Source of the DNA: a virus
IMG/VR virus record: IMGVR_UViG_3300031965_000005
Location: 1-64,000 of that record
Strand: one strand, 5' to 3'
DNA length: 64,000 bases
A model generated the notes under the pieces. The model was not told where the DNA came from. It did not search any database and was given only the letters and a program-made list of their open reading frames with translations. The translations under genes were made by a program, and so were the position numbers. Positions 14,619 through 64,000 of this stretch are shown in pieces; positions within the stretch are counted from its first letter, which is position 1; each line of letters opens with the position of its first letter.

Positions 14619-15194
14619 TCAGAAATTGATTGCGTAGTAAATGATCGCTGCATTTTCTCCAGTATTAAAATCTTTTCCAATCCCAATTCCGATGCTAGAG
14701 TTGTCAATTACTATGGGTTTATTTAATTTAATGTCGTATGAAATTCCAATACCTAAAAACTTATATAAAGCCAATAAATCTAAATTGAAATTCCAAGCAT
14801 ATGCGACTTCTAAAGCTAACCCCGCTGCCGGACTACCTGAAGTTGTAATGCCCCCCGCTAACTTTGGATGGAGATGGACTCCATAAGGTCTCAACTTCTT
14901 AACATTTCCAGCAGTAACTATAGAACCATCAAAATAAAGACTACCATCTTTAATCTTTAATTCGTGCTGTTTACCATCCCCATTTAGTAAGTGGATAGTG
15001 GTATCTTTCATATCCACTTGAATGGGACGATTCTTATAACCCCGAAGATATCCAATTCCAAAAACTAAAAGAGCTACTAGCCCTATCAATATTACAGATT
15101 TAAACGTTGTTACTGTAGCTTTAGCCCACCCCACCGCATCTAACGGATTAAGACCAGCCAAAAGCTTTTTGAAACTAAACTTTTCTTTAGCCAT
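14619..15194 (-). CDS. membrane-anchored protein with OMP-like C-terminal beta signal
   Basis: 191 aa. N-terminal TM segment VILIGLVALLVFGIGYL. The C-terminus has alternating hydrophobic strands ending AIIYYAINF (terminal Phe). Confidence 0.5.
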   Translation of the reverse strand: MAKEKFSFKKLLAGLNPLDAVGWAKATVTTFKSVILIGLVALLVFGIGYLRGYKNRPIQVDMKDTTIHLLNGDGKQHELKIKDGSLYFDGSIVTAGNVKKLRPYGVHLHPKLAGGITTSGSPAAGLALEVAYAWNFNLDLLALYKFLGIGISYDIKLNKPIVIDNSSIGIGIGKDFNTGENAAIIYYAINF

Positions 15195-15531
15195 TTCTCA
15201 ACCGCTCTATGGATTTAGTTTGATGAGCAGTTAACTTATTGAGAGTCTCTTCTAGGGCAAATTTCTTCTCAATCAGTTCATCTTCCCCAAGGGCTTTTCT
15301 TACACCAAGACTGGCTTTAGACAAGCGATTCTCAATGGCCGAGAGTTCATCTAAATAGCTCTTGAGAATAGCTCGACCACCCTCTAAATGAAGGACATAT
15401 TTATTGATAAATTGGCCATCTAGATTCTTGAGGATAGTCCCAACATCAACTGAAGTTTGAGAAGCTGATTGGGGGGATATTCCTTCGGCCATTTTTTGCA
15501 TGACAGAAGGATGTAATGCTGGTTTGCTCAT
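15187..15531 (-). CDS. coiled-coil hypothetical protein
   Basis: 114 aa. GGGAG lies upstream of the ATG. 8-nt overlap with the next ORF. Confidence 0.55.
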   Translation of the reverse strand: MSKPALHPSVMQKMAEGISPQSASQTSVDVGTILKNLDGQFINKYVLHLEGGRAILKSYLDELSAIENRLSKASLGVRKALGEDELIEKKFALEETLNKLTAHQTKSIERLRNG

Positions 15532-16191
15532 ACATAGTCTCCCAAGTCGTGTTCCTCTACAACCTATATCATATGACTACTAATACCACCGAAGCTTCCC
15601 TTGTGTTGGGAACCACCTACCCATATCATGATCATAGATATTCCAATTTACAAACCATTTAGCCCAAAGAATCGAATGCTTCAATGACCACCATAGCCGC
15701 TTCATGGCATTCTGGCGAGTGCGGCGCTTTGTCCATTTCTCAGATAGACCACCAAGCTTTACATGCTCCGCTGTGCAACTCATTCACAATCCTCCCGATT
15801 TTTGTAGCTGCCAACCCATTTTCAGTACGCGAAATATCGCTGTCTGCCCCCTTTCGGGGACGCCCTGCCTTCCAGCTTGGTTACTGTATTGTAGCCATAG
15901 GATTTCAAGGGCGGTCTCTGCGGGCTTGAAGAGGTGTACGTAGCGCTACCCACTTCCTCAACAGTGTCCATTTAGTCAGAGATTTTTCCTATTGTTACTG
16001 ATATCCAATTCCCTAAGGCTGAAGCGATGCCTTAAGTTCGACCCATTTGGGCTCCGCTTATCTTGGTCTAAATTGGACAGTAGAAATTATCAGCATCTTT
16101 GCGCTGCCTTGCGCGTTTACCGTTACGCTCTGTGCACGAGCCTCCTAGTCACCCGATGCTGATTTATAGGTTCATCTACTTAGTACAATTA
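15532..16191 (-). ncRNA. candidate large structured RNA / unassigned non-coding block
   Basis: Largest gap in the window. Hand-counted G+C is 45/57/57% for the three 60-nt lines 15781-15960, against 38% in coding line 15001-15060. It carries several hairpins, including a GAAA-capped helix (15846-15861) and a 9-bp long-range helix (16089-16097 with 16155-16163). Confidence 0.3.
15580..15783 (-). CDS. possible 67-aa basic Trp-rich peptide inside the non-coding block
   Basis: GGGAGG lies 7 nt before the ATG, and the product has 7 Trp and many Arg/Lys. It may instead be a chance ORF in structured RNA. Confidence 0.25.
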   Translation of the reverse strand: MSCTAEHVKLGGLSEKWTKRRTRQNAMKRLWWSLKHSILWAKWFVNWNIYDHDMGRWFPTQGKLRWY

Positions 16192-16389
16192 TTAGGCGCT
16201 AGTTACTGCTTCCCAAGCTGTACCATTGTAGAAATTTATCTTGTTGGTTGTGGTATTGTAGATAACTAGACCCTCAACTGCGACAAGTGCATCACGCTCT
16301 GCGGTAGTGTAACCGTGAAGAACTAAGCCACCTTCCGTAATACGAAAATTGCCCGCCCAATGATTGTCGGGTACATTATTAAGTGCCAT
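16192..16389 (-). CDS. small fibre-tip-like protein
   Basis: 65 aa. TTAERDALVAVEGLVIYNTTTNKINFYNGTAWEAV matches a motif common at the C-termini of phage or cell-surface fibre proteins. Confidence 0.55.
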   Translation of the reverse strand: MALNNVPDNHWAGNFRITEGGLVLHGYTTAERDALVAVEGLVIYNTTTNKINFYNGTAWEAVTSA

Positions 16390-16450
16390 TTGTTTCCTCT
16401 CTAATTTTTATAGTCTGTGATTTAATAGAAACTTACTCCAGTTACGTTCT

Positions 16451-17149: not shown

Positions 17150-17470
17150 TTACTTAGATAAGTCTGGATCTTCTTCAAGACCAAGCCGACGCCTATCGGC
17201 ATTTGACATTACATTCCCCACCTTTATATCGTCTCCAATGAAAAATCTACTGCCTCCCCCAGCGTCACCTAGAGAATCCTTCTTAAATCTAATGTTAGGA
17301 TTATTGATTTGACATTCAAAGATCGAACCATCTTCGTGATGGACATTAAAAGTCTTATCTCCCGTCCTCTCCATCTTAGTGGGCTGAGTATTACCTTTCT
17401 TTAACTTTTTACTTGCCCAGACCTCTTGACCTTTGTTAATAACTGTCTTGGGGGTAATAATATTGCTCAT
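17150..17470 (-). CDS. hypothetical protein
   Basis: 106 aa. ATGA overlap with the MuF gene. Confidence 0.55.
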   Translation of the reverse strand: MSNIITPKTVINKGQEVWASKKLKKGNTQPTKMERTGDKTFNVHHEDGSIFECQINNPNIRFKKDSLGDAGGGSRFFIGDDIKVGNVMSNADRRRLGLEEDPDLSK

Positions 17471-20028
17471 CTTGAGGGTTTTTCTTTATATTTAAAGTCT
17501 AATTGATATTTCGTATTACCTAATTTAGAATAAAAATCTGCAGCTTCAGGAGCTTCTTTCATCTCAGAGACCTTGGCATACTCTGACGGCCTCTTATCAG
17601 CATATCTCATCTCTGCAATGCCGTCTCGCATGACAATAACAGATTCCTGATTCCCTTCTGAAGGACTTAGAGCGAAATCCACAGCGGCATCTAAGTCTAC
17701 ATCACTTTTGGGAGTTGCGATGTAGCTACGTTCTTTAGTGCCATATTGCCCCTCTTGCATAACTAAGTCATCAGATAGGTTTTGCAATACCCTCTTAGCG
17801 GCAATACTTCTTCTATAATTTTCTTCTGGTCTGAGGTTACCTCTCTCCCCTGACATAATGAGGCGAGTTCCTGTCGATAGATGCTCTTTAATTCCCTCAA
17901 AAGTTTCTAATTTTTGTGGAACTGAAGTCTCTGGGGTATCTTCTCCAATATCCGCCCCACCGCCGCCACCGGAAGTGAATTTCCCCGATTCATCTCTAAG
18001 ATGTTCTTCTTCTCGAAACTCTGCTTTAATTAATTCATGTGCCACAGGTTTCTTAGCATCTCGGCTGTATACCCAATCTTTAAATGGTTTTATGTCCATC
18101 TCACTGAGAGCGCCCAGACCTTGCCACCCTTTGTCATAGTTGGACAAGTATCCCTCTCTGGCGGCCTTTGCATCTTTAAATCCCAACAAGACCTTGTGTT
18201 CGTCAAATTGTCCAGTATCTGGCTTGATCTGGTCAATAACAAAGACTTTCTCGCTTTCCAAATCAGATCCCAAAAAGACATCTACTTGCTCTTTATCCCC
18301 GCCCTCAGTCTGTTTAATATACCCGTAGTGATTATTTAGCTTAGTAGACCACTTATTTCCATTTCTATCTATTCCTGACCTCACTGAACCTTTAGGATTC
18401 TCGATCGAAATATCTAAGCCATGAATGTGCACATGACCCTTTTTATAATTGCCATTTTCTTTCTGATTCTCAGTCGGAATTTCTACTTCACTGGCGGCTT
18501 CTTCAATTCTCGCCTTCGTATCTGCTTTATGTACAGAGTTCAAATGCTGCTTGAGTTCCTCGTACGTAGCCTTCCAATCACCATCAAATCTAACAGCTTT
18601 ATCATCAACATATGCGGCAGCTAGGGGCTTCCCTGGATTCGCCCCAACAGGTTGTCTCGGATTGTAGTTTATGTAATCATAAATGATACCATGATACTTA
18701 AGATGATCTGCAATATCTTTCCTATTGCCCCTTACTGTATGGATTATGATTGTATATCCTTCTTCTTTCAACTTTGCTACCACTTCAGAAGCACCTGAAA
18801 TGGGATCTCCTAATACATTTATGTCATCGGTTATTTGCAAGATCGTACCATCTAAATCTATCGCTACTACCTTTGATTGATCAATAGATTCTCTCTTTAC
18901 TAGACTTGGAGATTCTACAAACTTATCGAGTCCTGGTTGACCATTCCAAAAGTCTGAAAGACTATCAGGCAAAGGAGCAGGTTCCCATAATTCTATGCAT
19001 CTACAATTTGAACGACATTGATTGGTGCCAGCTTCCATTCGAAATTGTGTAATGGTCATCCATTTGGCGTCATTATTCTCACACCCTTCACAGACTCCAT
19101 CATCATGCCTGGTATGCCAGTATCCTCCCATCAAAACTACACCAACGGGCAGTCCGGTTTCCCGATCTAGTTTGGGTTCCCCCGTTGGTTCTCCAGTCTC
19201 TGGATCAATTTCCTGGACATCTTTAATAGCTTGGCCTGTGCCTGCTGCAAGTAATACACTACCGAGAGCAGCAGCAAATTTAGGCAATCTATATGATTCT
19301 TTATTGTGGGCTTCTTCTACGGCTTGAAACAGTTTCTCAGGAGATTCATACTCTGCTTCTAAAGCTTTCTCGTAATCAGAGAATGCATCGCCCACTAGAA
19401 CTGCGAGAAATAACTCATTCCAATTCTCTTTCTCTTCTAAGATTTCCCTATCAACATCTGACAGGTCATCACTAATCTCTTGATCTGTCATAATCTGTCC
19501 ACGCTGCTTGCCAAGTTTGTATGCATCTTCGAATAGGGGCTTAGCGGCTCCCTTAAGCTCCTCTTTCATTTCTTCGAGCTTAGGTTTCAAAATTTCATTC
19601 TTTTTGGCCTTTAAATATCGAGCCATAAGCAACTTTCGCCGTGTCGAATCTTTCTCGGCTCTGACTTGAGCAAGAGTAGGGATAGCTAATATGGCAAGAG
19701 AGACTCGATCCTTCTCTTCTTCTTTATTATCTTCTTGTTTCTCCACTGTCTCTGGTAAGTCCTCTGCTTGGACTATACGCGAAATTTCTCGCCGATATCG
19801 ATCCCAAATGGATTTCATACGTTTGGTATATTTGTCAATGAGCTTGTCTACTTTCTTACCAATTTTAACTGGAACATTACGCTTGCGCATCGCCCCCAAG
19901 TATTCGCCACTAAACTCAATAGATTCTACTAACGGATAGGACTTGGTAGACGTTACAAAGGTCACTTTATCATTATATATCTTCCTCAGCTTTTCGATAG
20001 GCTGAGGCTCATCTAGTACAATTTTCAT
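17467..20028 (-). CDS. MuF/SPP1 gp7-like head morphogenesis polyvalent protein (MuF + HAD-like + pyrophosphatase-like + unknown C-terminal domain)
   Basis: 853 aa, directly after portal. MuF hallmark: GGYWHTRHDDGVCEGCENND...CRSNCRCIE (aa ~300-346). HAD-type: VVAIDLDGTI...IIIHTVRG...YVDDKAV (aa ~386-480). PPase-like: SIENPKGSVRSG...YGYIKQTEGGDKEQVDVFLG (aa ~540-590). Linker: EEHLRDESGKFTSGGGGG. Confidence 0.7.
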   Translation of the reverse strand: MKIVLDEPQPIEKLRKIYNDKVTFVTSTKSYPLVESIEFSGEYLGAMRKRNVPVKIGKKVDKLIDKYTKRMKSIWDRYRREISRIVQAEDLPETVEKQEDNKEEEKDRVSLAILAIPTLAQVRAEKDSTRRKLLMARYLKAKKNEILKPKLEEMKEELKGAAKPLFEDAYKLGKQRGQIMTDQEISDDLSDVDREILEEKENWNELFLAVLVGDAFSDYEKALEAEYESPEKLFQAVEEAHNKESYRLPKFAAALGSVLLAAGTGQAIKDVQEIDPETGEPTGEPKLDRETGLPVGVVLMGGYWHTRHDDGVCEGCENNDAKWMTITQFRMEAGTNQCRSNCRCIELWEPAPLPDSLSDFWNGQPGLDKFVESPSLVKRESIDQSKVVAIDLDGTILQITDDINVLGDPISGASEVVAKLKEEGYTIIIHTVRGNRKDIADHLKYHGIIYDYINYNPRQPVGANPGKPLAAAYVDDKAVRFDGDWKATYEELKQHLNSVHKADTKARIEEAASEVEIPTENQKENGNYKKGHVHIHGLDISIENPKGSVRSGIDRNGNKWSTKLNNHYGYIKQTEGGDKEQVDVFLGSDLESEKVFVIDQIKPDTGQFDEHKVLLGFKDAKAAREGYLSNYDKGWQGLGALSEMDIKPFKDWVYSRDAKKPVAHELIKAEFREEEHLRDESGKFTSGGGGGADIGEDTPETSVPQKLETFEGIKEHLSTGTRLIMSGERGNLRPEENYRRSIAAKRVLQNLSDDLVMQEGQYGTKERSYIATPKSDVDLDAAVDFALSPSEGNQESVIVMRDGIAEMRYADKRPSEYAKVSEMKEAPEAADFYSKLGNTKYQLDFKYKEKPSR

Positions 20029-20242
20029 CCGATTTCTTTTTGTAGACTATATTCCAGCGATTGGGAACATTGGAACAATCACTTACTGAATCATATAGAA
20101 ATGCGCTGAATATAATGACATTACCACATTTGCCACACATCAATCCCTGTGCTACCGTTCTCGCTGTGACTGGTGGCAACAACGAAGTCGGAAATGACAT
20201 TACATATAAGCAGTTGTCGCAAATAATATTGGCTGATGTCAT
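20009..20242 (-). CDS. small zinc-ribbon protein
   Basis: 77 aa with CDNC...CGKCG. 4-nt overlap with the portal stop. Confidence 0.45.
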   Translation of the reverse strand: MTSANIICDNCLYVMSFPTSLLPPVTARTVAQGLMCGKCGNVIIFSAFLYDSVSDCSNVPNRWNIVYKKKSDENCTR

Positions 20243-22053
20243 TTGTCCTTTTCGATCTGTTTTTCATCTGAAAATCCAATCTTAATAGTTGCTTCGACCC
20301 CTCTATTTTGTAATTCTTTTACAACATCGTGGATCATTTCATGTTGCTTAGCAACTGGCTTTCTTCGATTGACCTTCAAATTGAGATTAGTAGGCTCAGC
20401 CACCCCAGCTTCCGCTTGCGCCCCCGATTCTCGGTTCGCATCTGGGGTAGGGGTTGGACTCTCAGTGGCTGAAGCAGAAGGTTCTTCGCCATTAATATCC
20501 TCCTGATCTTCTTCCCCTTTCTCAAGAGTAACGACAGGAACTAACCCTGCGGCAGAAGTAACCGTTACTGCATCACCACCATCGATAGGCTTTAATCCAA
20601 GCTTGCGTCGTCTATCATTTCTAGAAATGACTCCACCCTGAATGTCTTGATGATCTATATTAGATTCTTTTTGTTCATCAGTTAAATCCATATCCTGCCA
20701 TTCAAACTTAACATCTTTAAATGAAAATCCAGATTTAACGATCTCATCATTATAATAGCATTTTAGCAGATGGAGAACACTTCTAACCCCACGAGCTTGT
20801 GATATGTCTAGTTGAGTCTCTGAAGTGGTGCGATGAAAATCCATCGTAAATCCAATATCTTGGGGCGATAGACCATAACATGCAGTCTTAATAGCCAACG
20901 TCCACTTCAAATATTCCATCATCTGCATATCACGGTTTGAATTTATCCTCATTGGAATAAACTTCGCGCCTTCAGTCCCACTCATGAACATCATACGATG
21001 AATACTACCACGTTTCCCTTGAACTTCGGCTTCCCACAAGCGCTGAAACATCTTACGCTGGTCTTCTGTAACATCTTTTCCTAAATCTAATACCCCTGGC
21101 GGAACGTTCGAGTTCTTAAAGTAGTCAATATTATACTCATCTGCGTAAATGCCAGCCGTGATGATATAAGCAGCAACTTCTAGAGGACTAAGACCATAAC
21201 CACTAGCTTGAGGATTCAGCATGATGAAGATAAGCTCATCCCAAGTAAATTCGGCTCTAGTGATGCCTGAATCCTCCCAGACATAAGCAGGTTCTGGGGG
21301 TTGAGGAACCGTTCGGTCTTCATTCCTATATATTCTTACTTGGTGTCCTGGAATGGTGTAAAGCTCTGCTAACTCTCCACGCATATTGTGATTCTTGACA
21401 ATTACCCCAGCGTCATAAACTAAGAGATCATCTACTACCAACTCCTGCAAAGCTCGAAAATTACTCTCTACTCCTTGGGTACTAGGTTGCTCGAAGATCC
21501 TGCGCACAGTCGGCCTATGACTCTCTGCTTCCTCTTTAATGCGGCGAGTGGCTGAAGCAAAACACCATTGAATAGCTTTTTTCTTTTCCGATGAATCTAC
21601 TGAAAGATTTAATATCTCTCTAAGCTTACTTCTTATGCTTTCGGCAATCTCAGGTTGCAAGTAGACGGGCTTAAATGTAATGGCTTCTGTTGGATCAATG
21701 GCATATGGGGATAAATAAGCCAAGGCGTAATCTTCCCATCGATTTAATTCTTCCTCCATCTTCTCAGTATCGACAATTATATCCCATTCAGCTTGGTTTA
21801 CAAAGGATTTTATAGTTCTACGTATAGACCATGTAATGGGATCAGTATTAGCTAATCTTTGGAGAGTGGCCGCATTAAGAGTAAATATGCGCTGCTGTTT
21901 TTTATTGACTAATGAATTAAAGAATGACCAAATACCCTTTCTGCCCTCCGGAACGGGTCTGTCGGGGTCATTCACTCTTTTAGCAAACGCCTGTAGATTT
22001 TGCCTAGCTAGTTCTGCAAAATTAAAAGGATTGATCTTACTAAACAGAGCCAT
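20239..22053 (-). CDS. portal protein
   Basis: 604 aa. Portal-family core (GLSPLEVAAYII...YFKNSNVPPGVLDLGKDVTEDQ...GKRGSIHRMMFMSG) and an acidic C-terminal tail. Lies upstream of MuF, protease and capsid. Confidence 0.85.
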   Translation of the reverse strand: MALFSKINPFNFAELARQNLQAFAKRVNDPDRPVPEGRKGIWSFFNSLVNKKQQRIFTLNAATLQRLANTDPITWSIRRTIKSFVNQAEWDIIVDTEKMEEELNRWEDYALAYLSPYAIDPTEAITFKPVYLQPEIAESIRSKLREILNLSVDSSEKKKAIQWCFASATRRIKEEAESHRPTVRRIFEQPSTQGVESNFRALQELVVDDLLVYDAGVIVKNHNMRGELAELYTIPGHQVRIYRNEDRTVPQPPEPAYVWEDSGITRAEFTWDELIFIMLNPQASGYGLSPLEVAAYIITAGIYADEYNIDYFKNSNVPPGVLDLGKDVTEDQRKMFQRLWEAEVQGKRGSIHRMMFMSGTEGAKFIPMRINSNRDMQMMEYLKWTLAIKTACYGLSPQDIGFTMDFHRTTSETQLDISQARGVRSVLHLLKCYYNDEIVKSGFSFKDVKFEWQDMDLTDEQKESNIDHQDIQGGVISRNDRRRKLGLKPIDGGDAVTVTSAAGLVPVVTLEKGEEDQEDINGEEPSASATESPTPTPDANRESGAQAEAGVAEPTNLNLKVNRRKPVAKQHEMIHDVVKELQNRGVEATIKIGFSDEKQIEKDK

Positions 22054-23999: not shown

Positions 24000-24025
24000 T
24001 TCGGATTAAAACTCCTTCTATTAAT

Positions 24026-24196
24026 TTATTCTGCCACTTCTTCTACTGATTCTCTTTTAATACATTGACCGCAATAAGCACAAATAACTTCTTTATACCG
24101 CAGAACTTTATTTTGTTCATCTTGCGGTAGTGTAGTATAATCTTGACAAAAAACCATAACTATTTTATTACAACTTGGACAAAAGTCAGTTTCCAT
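24026..24196 (-). CDS. 56-aa zinc-ribbon protein (below track cutoff)
   Basis: My translation is METDFCPSCNK...ICAYCGQC...VAE. Its ATG overlaps the upstream stop. Confidence 0.4.
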   Translation of the reverse strand: METDFCPSCNKIVMVFCQDYTTLPQDEQNKVLRYKEVICAYCGQCIKRESVEEVAE

Positions 24197-24416
24197 TATT
24201 TCTTTTCTTCTTTTTAGGCTTTCTAACCCCTAAATCTTCACGAGTCAATTCTAATCCGAAGACATCGCTTTCCATAGCTTTATACATGGATGTCAATCGA
24301 TTCAACTTCCCAATCAAATCACGTACAGTATCTATAGATTTCTTAGGAACTTTATGAGGAACATCTAGTCTCTCAGCGTTCCATTCTGGATATATAAAAT
24401 CAGCCTGTTTGTTCAT
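24186..24416 (-). CDS. hypothetical protein
   Basis: 76 aa with a basic C-terminus. Confidence 0.5.
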   Translation of the reverse strand: MNKQADFIYPEWNAERLDVPHKVPKKSIDTVRDLIGKLNRLTSMYKAMESDVFGLELTREDLGVRKPKKKKRNNGN

Positions 24417-25715: not shown

Positions 25716-25894
25716 CTCCTAAACAAATAAACCAACCAAAGTTTGAAGTCTGCCCATCTACTTTCCAACATGTCGGAACTATATTCTCCACCATGCATAA
25801 TATATTTAACTGCATCTCGCGTATTGTGATCTTTTTCAGATCCCACAAAATTATATATCTTTTGGTAAGTCTTCTTCGTCCGTCGCTTTCTCAT
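25706..25894 (-). CDS. hypothetical basic protein
   Basis: 62 aa. Confidence 0.45.
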   Translation of the reverse strand: MRKRRTKKTYQKIYNFVGSEKDHNTRDAVKYIMHGGEYSSDMLESRWADFKLWLVYLFRRWL

Positions 25895-26076
25895 TCGACC
25901 TCCACGCAGCTAGCCCACTCTCTCAAATCTTCAGCTTTGATCACAAATCCTGAAGCTCGCAGAAATGCTACAAAATGAGTCATCAATTCCGCCCAAGTCT
26001 CTTCTCCCGATTCTATATCAAACGTCACCGCCACTTGATCTGTCTTATCTGTCATTTTCATTAATTTATACATCAT
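25891..26076 (-). CDS. hypothetical acidic protein
   Basis: 61 aa. ATGA overlap. Confidence 0.5.
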   Translation of the reverse strand: MMYKLMKMTDKTDQVAVTFDIESGEETWAELMTHFVAFLRASGFVIKAEDLREWASCVEVE

Positions 26077-26205
26077 TTACACCTCAGGTTCAACCGCGTC
26101 AGATCCCATGCTAGCTTCATGGCTGGAAAGATTGGTTCTCCAGTCTTGCGGATTAGCTTGTACTGCTTAAACCAAAGAGACAAAGCCTCCAATATTCTTT
26201 TCCAT

Positions 26206-26433
26206 CTAGGTTTGTGTTGGAGCTTCATCGTTGTTACCATCAGCAATTTTCTCTACCGTGTAAGTTTCTTTATCATAGCGGTACATATCAATTACTTTCC
26301 AAGTGCCAACCTTCGTAATGAAGGTATCCCCCTTACTTAATTTCCTTCCCAACTTTTTCTCTAGAGCCTGCTGTGGAACGCTCTGAATCTCTCCGCTCAT
26401 GAAGTTATGACTCTTCTTTATGTTCGGCCTCAC
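26206..26433 (-). CDS. hypothetical protein
   Basis: 75 aa. Confidence 0.5.
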   Translation of the reverse strand: MRPNIKKSHNFMSGEIQSVPQQALEKKLGRKLSKGDTFITKVGTWKVIDMYRYDKETYTVEKIADGNNDEAPTQT

Positions 26434-34202: not shown

Positions 34203-34256
34203 AAGCAAAAGCCGAGAGCAACTAGTCATACTTCCGACTGGTCACCCTCGGCTCTC
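34203..34256 (-). terminator. intrinsic-terminator-like hairpin closing the early/accessory operon
   Basis: On the minus strand: GAGAGCCGAG ... CTCGGCTTTTGCTTT (6 GC-rich bp plus A-U/G-U extensions, then a U-tract). It sits in one of the very few intergenic regions. Confidence 0.45.
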
Positions 34257-34292
34257 TCGCCGCTGAGGACGCTTGCTTAAGTTATACTATCT

Positions 34293-34400
34293 TCAATCTT
34301 TGTTTATATACATAAATATCTTTACAGCCAAAGCAAAGCCTATGCCGACACTGACAATCGCCAGAATGGTGGTAAACGCAGCTTCAAGATATTCCAACAT
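34293..34400 (-). CDS. 35-aa single-TM peptide (below track cutoff)
   Basis: GGAG lies 6 nt upstream. My translation is MLEYLEAAFTTILAIVSVGIGFALAVKIFMYINKD. Confidence 0.35.
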   Translation of the reverse strand: MLEYLEAAFTTILAIVSVGIGFALAVKIFMYINKD

Positions 34401-34576
34401 CACATACTCCTAATTGTGCACAAGACGAAACTGGACAACCCATAAAAGAACATTAGTAGCGCCAACTTCGTATCCCCTTTCATTAAATAAATACAAGTTG
34501 CACTAATCTCTAATACCCCAATGCTAAACACGAACCAATTTGCAATATACATTTGTAGATCTCTTTCTATTCTTTA

Positions 34577-34747
34577 TTAACAGTTCTTATTTTTCACGTA
34601 TTCTTTGACCCTCATACCATCCAGTCTATTTGCTTGAATAACAAATTCAACCGTACAAAAGCTCTCTCTGTTGACCTTTTCTCTGTGAGCTTCTATAAAC
34701 TGAATTATCTGATCAGCTACACTAATTTTGTCGGTTAATGATTTCAT
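34577..34747 (-). CDS. 56-aa hypothetical protein (below track cutoff)
   Basis: My translation is MKSLTDKISVADQIIQFIEAHREKVNRESF.... Confidence 0.35.
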   Translation of the reverse strand: MKSLTDKISVADQIIQFIEAHREKVNRESFCTVEFVIQANRLDGMRVKEYVKNKNC

Positions 34748-34764
34748 TTTATGCTCTTGCTAGT

Positions 34765-42862: not shown

Positions 42863-42992
42863 AATCCAAATTCTCTCTTTTTAATGCTTCTGCCCTACAA
42901 CTGTGCCCATCATCTTTATATACGTCAATTTTACCACATGTTGAGCATACTTGAACTATTGAGTTGAACGGCTTTAACTCTTCATCGCTCAT
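42852..42992 (-). CDS. 46-aa zinc-ribbon-like peptide (below track cutoff)
   Basis: ATGA overlap with the RNA ligase stop. My translation is MSDEELKPFNSIVQVCSTCGK...HSC. Confidence 0.3.
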   Translation of the reverse strand: MSDEELKPFNSIVQVCSTCGKIDVYKDDGHSCRAEALKRENLDYDN

Positions 42993-44008
42993 GGCTGTAT
43001 GACTCGCTCTTTAAGCACATCTTTCAAGACCTGTAGACATTTTTTAGGAGCAACTTTTCTAATTCTATCGAAGTTAATAGAATCAAATTCTTTCACCAAT
43101 GTCCAACATTCTTCTTTCATAATATCTTCAATTAATGCTTTCGGAAGATGGTGCATTAACGGCATGTCCAATTTATGTCCACTTTCTTCGGTGAGTCTCA
43201 GCATAGCTTTTCTAATCCGCGCTTCCGTATAGAAAGTATCTATAAATTTGGTAGTATCATCGTTTAACGGCTTTATCCAACCGCCTTTATTGTTAAAGGC
43301 TGCTGCATTAGCTTCTTTAAATTCTTCACGCACGATTTTGGCGAAGAGTTGTCTTTCATAGATGTTCTTCCTAAAATAATTCTTAATGACGATTCCTTCC
43401 ATCAAACCATCATAATAAGCACTTTTACTTATGAAATTTTCAAGTCTGGTTAAATCTAATTCAGACACTTTGCAACGAGTAATTAAAGGAACTACGGGTA
43501 AGCCTAACCTATCATACTCATCTTTCATACCTTGATATGGGATAAACACACCAGTACGAATATCTCTTATATCAAATCCTACAAATTTGGGCATAGTATC
43601 CCAAGCGTAGTTAATGGTATGTTTCTTACACCACTCCCCATAATAAACGTAATCAGGATTGAGCAGATCACCAGCGGTCTTTTCTGCCCCGACCCCATTT
43701 CCAAAGAGCTTCCCCAAGATCCATCCCGCATTTTCTCCAAATTGTTTATTTTGGGCGCTCCCATCTCCAACTCTAAACTGATTATTACGACTACCGAAGA
43801 TAATTTCTCCATCATGGAGTCTGAATTGCCCATTGCCACCGCCTATCTTCTCGGTAATCACTACAACATCATCAGGATAATCAAAGATATTCTCATTCTC
43901 TTCGTGACCTAAACGAGAAATGTCACAGTATTTTATCATTTGGGGAAAGTTTTTAGGTGCCATTTTATTTAATTTAACACTTCTTTTCTTCCTGGCTCTA
44001 ATTTCCAT
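42989..44008 (-). CDS. Rnl2-family RNA ligase-like nucleotidyltransferase
   Basis: 339 aa. Motif I TEKIGGGNGQF (compare T4 Rnl2 EKIHGTN), III YYGEW, IIIa FVGFDI, IV EGIVIKN, V FAKIVREEF. Confidence 0.65.
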   Translation of the reverse strand: MEIRARKKRSVKLNKMAPKNFPQMIKYCDISRLGHEENENIFDYPDDVVVITEKIGGGNGQFRLHDGEIIFGSRNNQFRVGDGSAQNKQFGENAGWILGKLFGNGVGAEKTAGDLLNPDYVYYGEWCKKHTINYAWDTMPKFVGFDIRDIRTGVFIPYQGMKDEYDRLGLPVVPLITRCKVSELDLTRLENFISKSAYYDGLMEGIVIKNYFRKNIYERQLFAKIVREEFKEANAAAFNNKGGWIKPLNDDTTKFIDTFYTEARIRKAMLRLTEESGHKLDMPLMHHLPKALIEDIMKEECWTLVKEFDSINFDRIRKVAPKKCLQVLKDVLKERVIQP

Positions 44009-44172
44009 TTATGTCCACATTCTGAATAATAAAGCGAGGTCAAACCCCCATCAATACTATGAGTTTGTGTAATATAACCGCAAACGGGACAAGTACGTTC
44101 ATATCGTTCAAAATTCTGCATGGATACAGTAGGCAAAATATTATCTGCCATCATAAAATCCACTTGTTCCAA
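43969..44172 (-). CDS. small zinc-ribbon protein
   Basis: 67 aa with CPVCGY...CGHKW. Confidence 0.5.
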   Translation of the reverse strand: MEQVDFMMADNILPTVSMQNFERYERTCPVCGYITQTHSIDGGLTSLYYSECGHKWKLEPGRKEVLN

Positions 44173-44329
44173 TCTCTACTGATACCTTGTGTTTTTTAGA
44201 TTTTGCGTGGTTTCTAGCTAATCTATTTGCAGTCATATAATTATCAGAGTTCCAATCACAATTTGTGCACTCAGCTATACAGTGAACTACACCAAACAAC
44301 TTCTTTAGTTTAGTAAGATTTTTAGTCAT
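44141..44329 (-). CDS. small zinc-binding protein
   Basis: 62 aa with HCIAECTNCDW...H. Confidence 0.5.
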   Translation of the reverse strand: MTKNLTKLKKLFGVVHCIAECTNCDWNSDNYMTANRLARNHAKSKKHKVSVEIGTSGFYDGR

Positions 44330-44507
44330 CGGCTATCTTTTCTTCAATAACAAACGGTCTATTCATTTGATCTATAAATCGCTTATCACATTTAGCACAT
44401 TCAAATTCAGTTCTACCATCTCGCCTGAAAGCGACAATCTCAAGATAAAGTGAGAGTAGCAAATGATTAATAGTATCACAAGAATTAGAACAATGTTTGT
44501 TTATCAT
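44322..44507 (-). CDS. small zinc-binding protein
   Basis: 61 aa with CSNSC...CAKCDK. Confidence 0.45.
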   Translation of the reverse strand: MINKHCSNSCDTINHLLLSLYLEIVAFRRDGRTEFECAKCDKRFIDQMNRPFVIEEKIADD

Positions 44508-63982: not shown

Positions 63983-64000
63983 AGCAAAGCGAAGTCTACT

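Follow-up and report, generated by a model that had tools for sequence, protein, structure and literature searches.

A phage-restricted RNA motif in a non-coding gap between phage head genes

GOLLD and ROOL are large ornate RNAs of phages and prophages, often located beside transfer RNA (tRNA) genes, and together with the pRNA of phi29-type phages they assemble into rings or cages. In pRNA, the loops pair between molecules to form the ring, and there is little conservation of the primary sequence. In this study we analysed a stretch of 64,000 nucleotides (nt) of viral DNA (positions 1 to 64,000 of IMG/VR record IMGVR_UViG_3300031965_000005; hereafter the window), which is part of a 93.7-kb contig of an uncultured phage (ENA ERZ27256875 k141_4790549). 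Our subject is a gap at 15532-16191, for which an earlier note, made from the letters alone, had proposed a structured non-coding RNA. We found that the 5' part of the gap, termed domain 1, is one complete copy of an RNA motif of about 90-105 nt (16180-16079, minus strand) and that it belongs to a class of RNAs restricted to phages and not catalogued before. It is very probable that the structured RNA is real and that its family is new. The core idea of the note, namely that a structured non-coding RNA and not a decayed gene lies on the minus (transcribed) strand, was supported by the analysis.

Retrieval, covariation and fold of the motif

Homologs of the 227-amino-acid (aa) protein encoded before the gap were present in ten loci of IMG/VR, and one of these, L005, had a non-coding stretch at the same position. 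A second resemblance, at the 5' end of the gap, was shared by the window, L005 and a further locus, L001. It consisted of TGAACCTATAA, a variable stretch, GGTGACTAGGAG, a hairpin, GTAAYGGTA, another hairpin and the complement of the variable stretch. The two conserved strings, used as an exact pattern, retrieved 44 stretches from IMG/VR and 94 from metagenome contigs, and the same pattern retrieved five from one genome each of 185,579 bacterial and archaeal species. Four of the latter were chromosomal and failed the covariance model R1, the seed of which comprised 10 well-aligned copies with the window sequence left out; the fifth, on a 4.4-kb unplaced contig, passed. The motif class is essentially confined to viral sequence. 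A pattern for the pseudoknot variant described below yielded 38 further stretches from IMG/VR. R1 confirmed 37 copies in the first set and 36 of the 38 variants, and it gave 68 matches at E<=1 in the second set, about 65 of them credible, although E-values from such short-calibrated models are rough. In total, 113 distinct copies of at least 80 nt were collected from viral and metagenome contigs, and they span 33-66% G+C. A sequence-only search is blind to this family: nhmmer with the whole block recovered only domains 2 and 3 of L005 (see below) and missed the copies of domain 1.

The consensus comprises an outer stem, by which the element is usually enclosed, the 5' strand CUGAACCUAUAA, a three-way junction of the helices P1, P2 and P3, a 4-bp pseudoknot between the 5' strand and the first junction strand, and a contact between the P2 and P3 loops. 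The junction strands GGUGACUAGGAKG and UAAnGRUA are near-invariant. Homologs were retrieved by exact patterns on two junction strands, and conservation was also seen at positions outside the search patterns: the U before GAAC is kept in nearly all copies and the G before GUGACU in 106 of 113. UAAnGRUA, which was part of no retrieval pattern, was located by a loose template in 104 of the 113 copies, with each conserved position kept in 99-104 of these. Pairs were counted on the first 37 distinct copies. Standard pairs occupied 93.1% of the cells, compared to 53.8% after shuffling and 32-45% with the partners slid. All 19 modelled pairs of domain 1 showed compensatory changes on both sides, compared to 17.2 +/- 1.0 in shuffled alignments (42 of 500 shuffles reached 19), and the cells with a double change numbered 250, compared to 72 +/- 7 (none of 500 shuffles reached 250). 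The helices are obvious in the raw sequences too. G-U pairs were far more frequent than A-C combinations (104 vs 32), which places the RNA on the gene strand. When all 35 first copies were treated with MAFFT and RNAalifold, misalignment of the 3' half left P2 and the invariant pseudoknot as the only elements recovered; this was mended by the model seeded with 10 copies.

In the window, R1 matched at full length at 16176-16088 of the minus strand (39.3 bits, E 1.8e-6, or 2.7e-7 with filters off), and this was its only match in the window and a further 20 kb of the contig. The conserved strands are represented by AUGAACCUAUAA for CUGAACCUAUAA, GGUGACUAGGAGG for GGUGACUAGGAKG and UAACGGUA for UAAnGRUA. 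The minimum free energy (MFE) fold of 16182-16077 gives P0, the outer stem, as well as P1, P2 and P3, with z = -2.2, and domain 1 is the only part of the block that nears significance in folding energy. Across the family, the P1 pairs were all supported by compensatory changes (9 of 9 modelled), with 94.9% of cells paired. The hairpins that had been paired by eye in the gap were all present at the coordinates given for them, and two of them, the 9-bp helix 16163-16155/16097-16089 and the hairpin 16114-16101, turned out to be P1 and P3 of the motif.

The pseudoknot has the form CCUA:UAGG in the canonical copies and CUCA:UGAG in one copy of L001. For the third-position pair, the U-A form was found in 44 stretches and the C-G form in 38 (36 of which pass R1), while the mismatched C-A form did not occur. 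The neighbouring pair, left free as Y/R in the pattern, was C-G in 25 cases, U-A in three and mismatched in none. The P2 and P3 loops are complementary while their sequences change, as in CACU:AGUG, UGCCA:UGGCA, AGCCA:UGGCU, UUCCA:UGGAA, UGCUUA:UAAGCA and UUGUCA:UGACAA. The mean longest Watson-Crick run between the two loops was 3.42, compared to 2.37 +/- 0.08 with permuted partners (0 of 200), and runs of at least 4 bp were present in 44% of the copies, compared to 9.6% after permutation. Judged from this covariation, the loops may pair within one molecule or between molecules. The outer stem is variable. Its best helix had a mean of 8.1 bp, compared to 6.8 in permuted controls, and reached at least 8 bp in 49% of the copies, compared to 24%; several copies had 12-15 perfect pairs.

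The two diverged copies in L001 (4689-4778 and 5570-5657) lie about 880 nt apart, one with the canonical and one with the compensated pseudoknot. The second copy is followed by a fibre-like open reading frame (ORF) of about 58 aa, the sole possible start of which is TTG.

Comparison with described RNAs and genomic settings

No match was found in Rfam 15 for the whole window at gathering thresholds or for the block at 15300-16450 at E<=10, and none at the motif positions in nine other loci (E<=1) or in a locus with the variant pseudoknot (E<=10). The minus-strand comparison that the earlier note had suggested (Intron_gpI, group II, GOLLD, ROOL, HEARO and raiA) was likewise negative at E<=10, as was that with OLE. 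Among the candidates that it had named, the novel RNA stood, and GOLLD/ROOL and the self-splicing intron fell. A description of the motif was not found in the literature, although it may be among the 10,006 candidate viral RNAs of one catalogue (PMC10690425).

The motif resembles GOLLD and ROOL in being phage-borne, non-coding and associated with tRNA genes, its complementary loops could in principle serve for RNA-RNA contacts, and the RNA in the window is long (about 385 nt) and multi-domain and has GNRA-capped hairpins. However, the conserved core of the motif is only about 90-105 nt and forms a pseudoknotted three-way junction, the motif is essentially absent from cellular genomes and hence from prophages, and the long 3' part is lineage-specific. 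Compared to phi29 pRNA, there is again a three-way-junction phage RNA with two complementary, covarying loops, and in the window it lies in the head-assembly block. In contrast to pRNA, about 35 nucleotides of the motif are near-invariant, its contexts include tRNA arrays and tailed myovirus-type gene sets, and no link to the portal or the packaging motor was seen here; Rfam Phage_pRNA gave no match. In architecture, the motif is like the "tuning fork" of purine riboswitches, with a three-way junction closed by P1, conserved junction strands, covarying helices and complementary P2 and P3 loops. The motif differs in having no sequence or model similarity to them (Rfam was negative), longer junction strands (13 and about 10 nt), and an additional pseudoknotting 5' strand. 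A common expression platform is not evident, the genes next to the motif do not form a coherent regulated set, and half of the copies are in tRNA arrays. In general terms, an aptamer-like fold with covariation, as expected of a riboswitch, is present in the three-way junction, the pseudoknot and the loop-loop contact, and placement upstream of functionally related genes is absent, since the neighbours are tRNAs, tail tube, polymerase A and small genes.

Small stable-RNA genes in a phage tRNA cluster and on the tRNA strand are also known from T4 (species 1 and 2, rnaC and rnaD), but they share no junction sequences with the motif. With filters off, the best match of R1 in the T4 genome segment AF158101 69500-74500 (8.0 bits, E 0.77) was located elsewhere than rnaC and rnaD. 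Phage group I introns share the settings of structural genes, polymerase genes and tRNAs, whereas the motif interrupts no gene, has too small a core and matches no intron model. Known self-cleaving ribozymes (hammerhead, twister, twister-sister, pistol, hatchet and HDV-like) were negative in Rfam, and by eye the junction strands misfit the hammerhead core. The non-coding RNA arrays of UG27 reverse transcriptases (bioRxiv 10.64898/2026.09.22.753630) have another architecture and context and need an adjacent reverse transcriptase.

The loci of 49 out of 86 distinct canonical copies contained tRNA genes, and in 43 of the 86 a tRNA was no more than 300 nt away. Near the motif, 394 tRNAs were on the motif strand and one was on the opposite strand. 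In locus L030, the motif almost exactly fills the spacer between tRNA-Ser and tRNA-Thr. There was no polarity within the arrays, with 100 tRNAs upstream and 88 downstream in symmetric windows. In protein-coding settings, 10 loci had the motif immediately before a tail tube gene, and in 5 loci it came about 105 nt after a tail sheath gene. In another 4-6 loci, it separated a small gene from that of DNA polymerase A. It follows a gene of the 227-aa protein family directly in L001 and via a small ORF in the window, L005 and L137, which thus have the order 227-aa-like gene, small ORF and motif in common; the small ORF resembles the 65-aa gene of the window in L137, by eye only, and does not in L005. 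Another downstream neighbour is a gene for a 98-aa protein, followed by one for a 352-aa protein that was read by eye as head-morphogenesis type.

Two further observations concern the arrays. Those bearing the motif also encode permuted (two-piece) transfer-messenger RNA (tmRNA) genes, as identified by ARAGORN (Table 1), one of which, in L026, was confirmed by Rfam tmRNA_permuted with 116 bits. In a group of six arrays (L024, L014, L031, L040, L042 and L017), the motif is flanked by GUUUCAAUAUGGUG / CACCAUAUUGAAAC as inverted copies, which form an outer helix of about 14 bp, and a further direct copy follows shortly downstream. On the 3' side of the motif, the loop of a hairpin (e.g. GAUGAGCA) is complementary to UGCUCA just 5' of the motif. 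The inverted copies and the complementary loop may represent an array-wide processing stem or an additional pseudoknot.

Proposed role and its alternatives

We read the block as a multi-domain non-coding RNA of a new class, with a partner-binding pocket, that acts as a stable excised module, and we give this reading as a whole a probability of roughly 60%. An RNA of about 385 nt on the minus strand (about 16180 to 15797) would most likely be transcribed with the head-morphogenesis operon. After it would come some 265 nt, either a spacer without structure or an orphan ORF, and then the leader of the next gene. This RNA would be made in quantity, trimmed from the polycistronic transcript and act as a stable module instead of a switch for the next gene. 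Our best guess is that this module binds a ligand or protein. About 35 junction nucleotides are fixed while the helices are free, the neighbours are unrelated and the G+C content ranges widely, from which we infer that the fold may provide a pocket in which a single conserved partner is bound, be it a small molecule or a macromolecule of the host or the phage. The placement, which is like that of a small-RNA gene in tRNA arrays and highly expressed late operons, suggests a stable and abundant excised RNA. More specifically, a new ligand-binding or catalytic RNA class used only by phages can be suggested tentatively; it might be an abundant aptamer that acts as a sponge for host metabolites or immune signalling nucleotides, a self-cleaving ribozyme or a component of rings or cages assembled through the P2 and P3 loops.

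Several points weigh against the reading of a stable, excised module. A subgroup of copies is located 10-30 nt before the start codon of DNA polymerase, and in L036 an apparent -10-like box, the element and a ribosome-binding site follow each other, as judged by eye; a U-tract after the outer stem, in nine of 111 copies, also gives a cis-like placement. Some copies thus look cis-placed, and the trans-acting role remains a proposal. Transcript ends, stability and abundance are all deduced from the sequence. The phage itself has no tRNA genes in the approximately 84 kb examined. The folding energy of the whole block is not significant (z = -1.1 for the minus and -1.6 for the plus strand), and a density of hairpins beyond chance was therefore not borne out for the gap. 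In the window, the P2 loop UGC (16136-16134) can form only 3 bp with GCA of the P3 loop. Domains 2 and 3 rest on two sequences only. The alignments used for the pair counts were fitted to the model, which favours structure, and the "invariance" of the junctions was partly imposed by the search because retrieval used exact patterns.

The main rival is a cis-acting operon element, be it an aptamer of the riboswitch type, a signal for processing or stability through which neighbouring genes are uncoupled, or an antiterminator RNA of the put or EAR type, and we consider it rather unlikely. The element is always on the coding strand and inside operons, and a three-way junction with conserved strands and a P2-P3 contact is the classic layout of an aptamer. 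The recurrence of sites in the sheath-tube spacer and shortly before the polymerase start, and the order of elements in L036, could be explained in this way, and outer stems of 10-15 bp could be sites for RNase III, nine being followed by a U-tract. However, the downstream genes are functionally unrelated, and half of the copies are beside tRNAs and not ORFs. The next start codon may be as near as about 10 nt or more than 600 nt away, the ribosome-binding site of the polymerase group is not visibly sequestered, and the terminator-like tail is confined to the nine copies mentioned. A leader or antiterminator would predict a 5' bias in tRNA arrays, and there was none. The element might instead be a self-cleaving ribozyme of a new class, by which polycistronic transcripts of phages, tRNA precursors as well as late mRNAs, are cut. 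Known small ribozymes occur at scattered sites in phage genomes and beside phage tRNAs, e.g. the theta ribozymes, and the compact pseudoknotted fold, the invariant junction nucleotides and the location of all contexts in places of transcript processing would suit such an activity. It is nevertheless improbable, given that no ribozyme family of Rfam matched, that about 35 conserved nucleotides exceed the usual need of small self-cleavers and that no candidate cleavage site could be named from the sequence.

A DNA-level palindrome, such as a recombination or packaging site, a replication origin or a miniature transposable element, could account for the inverted repeats of the outer stem, which resemble terminal inverted repeats, and for the scattering of the motif over unrelated phages. 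We regard it as very unlikely. Tolerance of G-U but not of A-C marks a single transcribed strand, the orientation follows genes and tRNAs (394 to 1), the outer-stem sequences differ from copy to copy, unlike ends recognised by a transposase, and the covariation of the pseudoknot and of the loop-loop contact would be meaningless for duplex DNA. There is just as little to be said, overall, for a decayed protein gene or a neutral spacer with chance hairpins. The non-significant folding of the whole block would agree with it, and it may hold for the 3' 265 nt or so, which have neither a homolog nor a structural signal. However, 59 nt are 85% identical in L005, compared to 62% for the neighbouring protein, the frame is not kept, and domain 1 has more than 100 homologs with compensatory changes in every modelled pair. 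This explanation is refuted by covariation for 16180-15797 and stands for 15796-15532.

The least probable of all, in our view, is a degenerate or unusual self-splicing intron of group I or II. It could draw on a loose resemblance to the R and S strings and on the occurrence of phage introns in structural and polymerase genes. The idea is contradicted because both flanking genes are intact, a relative without the RNA (L061) keeps the neighbours and no intron model matches: neither Intron_gpI nor group II was found at E<=10, and there is no ORF with a Pfam domain in the gap. The 65-aa gene upstream ends in tandem stops and its PTL_trimer domain is complete, and the gene downstream has its full length compared to a homolog of 114 aa. 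The S-like string GAUAUAGGUU (15570-15560) overlaps GGTTGTA, a string also found upstream of the next gene in two relatives without the RNA, so that the resemblance to group I put forward in the earlier note could not be upheld. The conserved domain is a three-way junction of about 90 nt, not a P3-P9 core with P, Q, R and S, and with tRNAs often flanking it directly, as in L030, it is too small for group I.

If the reading of a stable module is true, a widespread, phage-restricted RNA would join the tRNA-clustered phage RNAs, i.e. GOLLD, ROOL and species 1 and 2 of T4. Its small size, pseudoknot and loop-loop contact would make it tractable for ligand screening, cleavage assays and structure determination. 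For annotation, it would account for "empty" spacers in tRNA arrays, in sheath-tube intergenic regions and upstream of DNA polymerase genes. In the window, the gap in the head operon would be an accessory RNA block that is absent from a close relative, and neither an intron nor a dead gene.

Remainder of the block and neighbouring genes

The gap exists as claimed, and its description as the middle of a virion operon is correct: head genes (portal, prohead protease and capsid) lie on both sides, and essentially all genes of the window are on the minus strand (Table 1). If the 65-aa gene is included, no other stretch of the window that lacks a minus-strand ORF of at least 80 aa is as long. The G+C contents counted by hand (45.0%, 56.7% and 56.7% for the lines of 15781-15960, compared to 38.3% for 15001-15060) were exact. 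Over the whole gap, the G+C content is 46.7%, compared to 40.8 +/- 2.6% for 660-nt windows (97th percentile), an enrichment that is real but modest. The proposal of a structured non-coding block held for about 385 of the 660 nt, which have comparative support, and failed for the 3' 265 nt or so (15796-15532; z = +0.8, no homolog).

Table 1. Positions of features in the window and, where a locus is named, in related loci
Feature	Position	Strand	Remarks
Portal gene	20239-22053	-	head block, first in transcription direction
853-aa protein gene, pyrophosphatase domain	17467-20028	-	after portal
106-aa, then 227-aa protein genes		-	between 853-aa and 65-aa genes
65-aa PTL_trimer gene	16192..16389	-	PF26696, precomputed; ends in tandem stops TAATAA
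Gap	15532-16191	-	between 65-aa and 114-aa genes
Outer stem P0	AGUAGA 16180-16175 / UCUACU 16084-16079	-	closes domain 1; in MFE fold
J0/1 strand UGAACCUAUAA	16164..16174	-	one exact copy in window
Pseudoknot 5' half CCUA	16170-16167	-	within J0/1; covaries across family
P1 5' strand AUCAGCAUC	16155..16163	-	pairs with GAUGCUGAU, 16097-16089
J1/2 strand GGGUGACUAGGAG	16142..16154	-	one copy in window
Pseudoknot 3' half UAGG	16147-16144	-	within J1/2
P2 hairpin GCUC-GUGCACA-GAGC	16127..16141	-	all P2 pairs covary
J2/3 strand GUAACGGUAAAC	16115..16126	-	fits consensus UAAnGRUA
P3 hairpin GCGC-AAGGCA-GCGC	16101..16114	-	7 of 7 modelled P3 pairs covary
P1 3' strand GAUGCUGAU	16089..16097	-	pairs with AUCAGCAUC
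Linker, two local hairpins	15993..16078	-	z = -1.5; different hairpin in L005
Domain 2	15897..15992	-	closed by AUAGGA (15992-15987) / UCCUAU (15902-15897)
Domain 3	15797..15896	-	GUCCCC-GAAA-GGGGGC 15861-15846, GCGA-UAUU-UCGC 15840-15829; z = -1.9
GGGAGG (15796-15791) and 67-aa Trp/Arg-rich ORF (15783-15580)	15580..15796	-	no Pfam match; z = +0.8
Leader of 114-aa gene	15532..15579	-	GGTTGTA at 15564-15558
114-aa gene, intact	15187..15531	-	homolog P0002 also 114 aa, 69% identity, 98% coverage
191-aa, 580-aa (prohead protease domain) and SU10-type major capsid protein genes		-	in that order after 114-aa gene
Permuted tmRNA	L026 860-1250
Permuted tmRNA	L028 3979-4306
Permuted tmRNA	L033 9072-9491
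Permuted tmRNA	L034 4076-4511
Permuted tmRNA	L040 13287-13722
Permuted tmRNA	L054 8607-8989
Peptide deformylase	L196 5519-6058
Adenylosuccinate synthetase	L196 7473-8609
Gad2-family (anti-Gabija) protein	L196 8610-9239
Pentapeptide-repeat protein	L196 660-1445

Beyond the linker, domains 2 and 3 (15992 to about 15797) appear to be a lineage-specific structured extension common to one related phage. The conserved 59 nt (blastn; nhmmer E ~7e-11) lie within domain 2, the closing helix of which is replaced by CUGAGA/UCUCAG in L005. Between the two sequences, five of the 22 predicted pairs of domain 2 were changed on both sides and none was broken. A 49-aa ORF over this domain lacks a start codon in L005 and meets a stop after about 21 codons there; since the 67-aa ORF is an orphan, there is no conserved ORF in the gap. 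Domain 3 also aligns to L005, and its GNRA-capped hairpin has a counterpart at the same place with a different cap (CCC-GCAA-GGG). The helix UUCAAG/CUUGAA, which had been listed with the hairpins, is not kept in L005. Three patterns in viral contigs and one in metagenome contigs led only to the L005 contig, and neither nhmmer with the 3' parts nor a model R2 run over 0.95 Mb revealed a further copy of domain 2 or 3. At the centre of domain 2, there is a perfectly palindromic GUAGCGCUAC (15940-15949, minus strand), identical in L005, which could form a tight hairpin, pair with GCUAC at about 15806, as suggested by RNAalifold, or pair between two molecules.

The stretch at 15580-15796 has no similarity to L005, L060 or L061 and is either a doubtful orphan gene or plain spacer. 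The note had listed the 67-aa ORF without making it a convincing gene, and this was borne out: among 5.8 billion proteins, its only relative was itself. As a source of homologs, the relatives of the 114-aa gene were of little use, L060 being too short and L061 lacking the insert. The string GGTTGTA lies about 30-70 nt upstream of the 114-aa gene start, and likewise in L060 (about 85-93) and L061 (about 850-858), both without the RNA. Neither of two strings qualified as a repeated promoter: GGTTGTA had five matches in the window, compared to 1.7 expected, with none at other gene starts, and TGAACCTATAA had a single exact copy in the window, with matches of up to two mismatches at chance level.

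In L061, relatives of the genes for the 106-, 114- and 191-aa proteins are kept in order with a spacer of 126 nt, and both the 65-aa gene and the RNA are missing. The gene-plus-RNA block is therefore accessory. The isolate phages of INPHARED gave no match by blastn with the block, by tblastn with the capsid and 227-aa proteins, or by blastn with two motif-bearing array segments; no cultured phage with the motif was identified there, and the conserved strings are too short for BLAST. A scan for tRNA and tmRNA genes found none in the window. Minus-strand ORFs of at least 80 aa are also absent from 25716-26404, 34230-34764, 44009-44484 and 24000-24399 (400-690 nt each), and these four stretches had no match to Rfam or R1.

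Some features of the surrounding genes were also recorded. The first 18-32 residues of the 65-aa protein (MALNNVPDNHWAGNFRIT..., 16389-16336, minus strand) recur as the N-terminus of otherwise different proteins, i.e. members of the 227-aa family in L004 (3968-4021) and L005 (3998-4051) and a 211-aa protein in L061 (151-246). It looks as if interchangeable bodies had one N-terminal module for attachment in common. In the 853-aa protein, a strong inorganic pyrophosphatase domain (PF18823, E 1.6e-56) is joined to a C-terminus with a weak likeness to S-adenosylmethionine lyases (E 1.2e-3, below the cut-off), and such a fusion is unusual in the vicinity of virion genes. A 339-aa protein (42989-44008, minus strand) has an RNA ligase domain (PF09414), and a link between this protein and the structured RNA would be pure speculation. 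Beyond position 64000 of the window, the contig (L196) encodes peptide deformylase, adenylosuccinate synthetase, a Gad2-family (anti-Gabija) protein and a pentapeptide-repeat protein, which are auxiliary metabolic and anti-defence genes.

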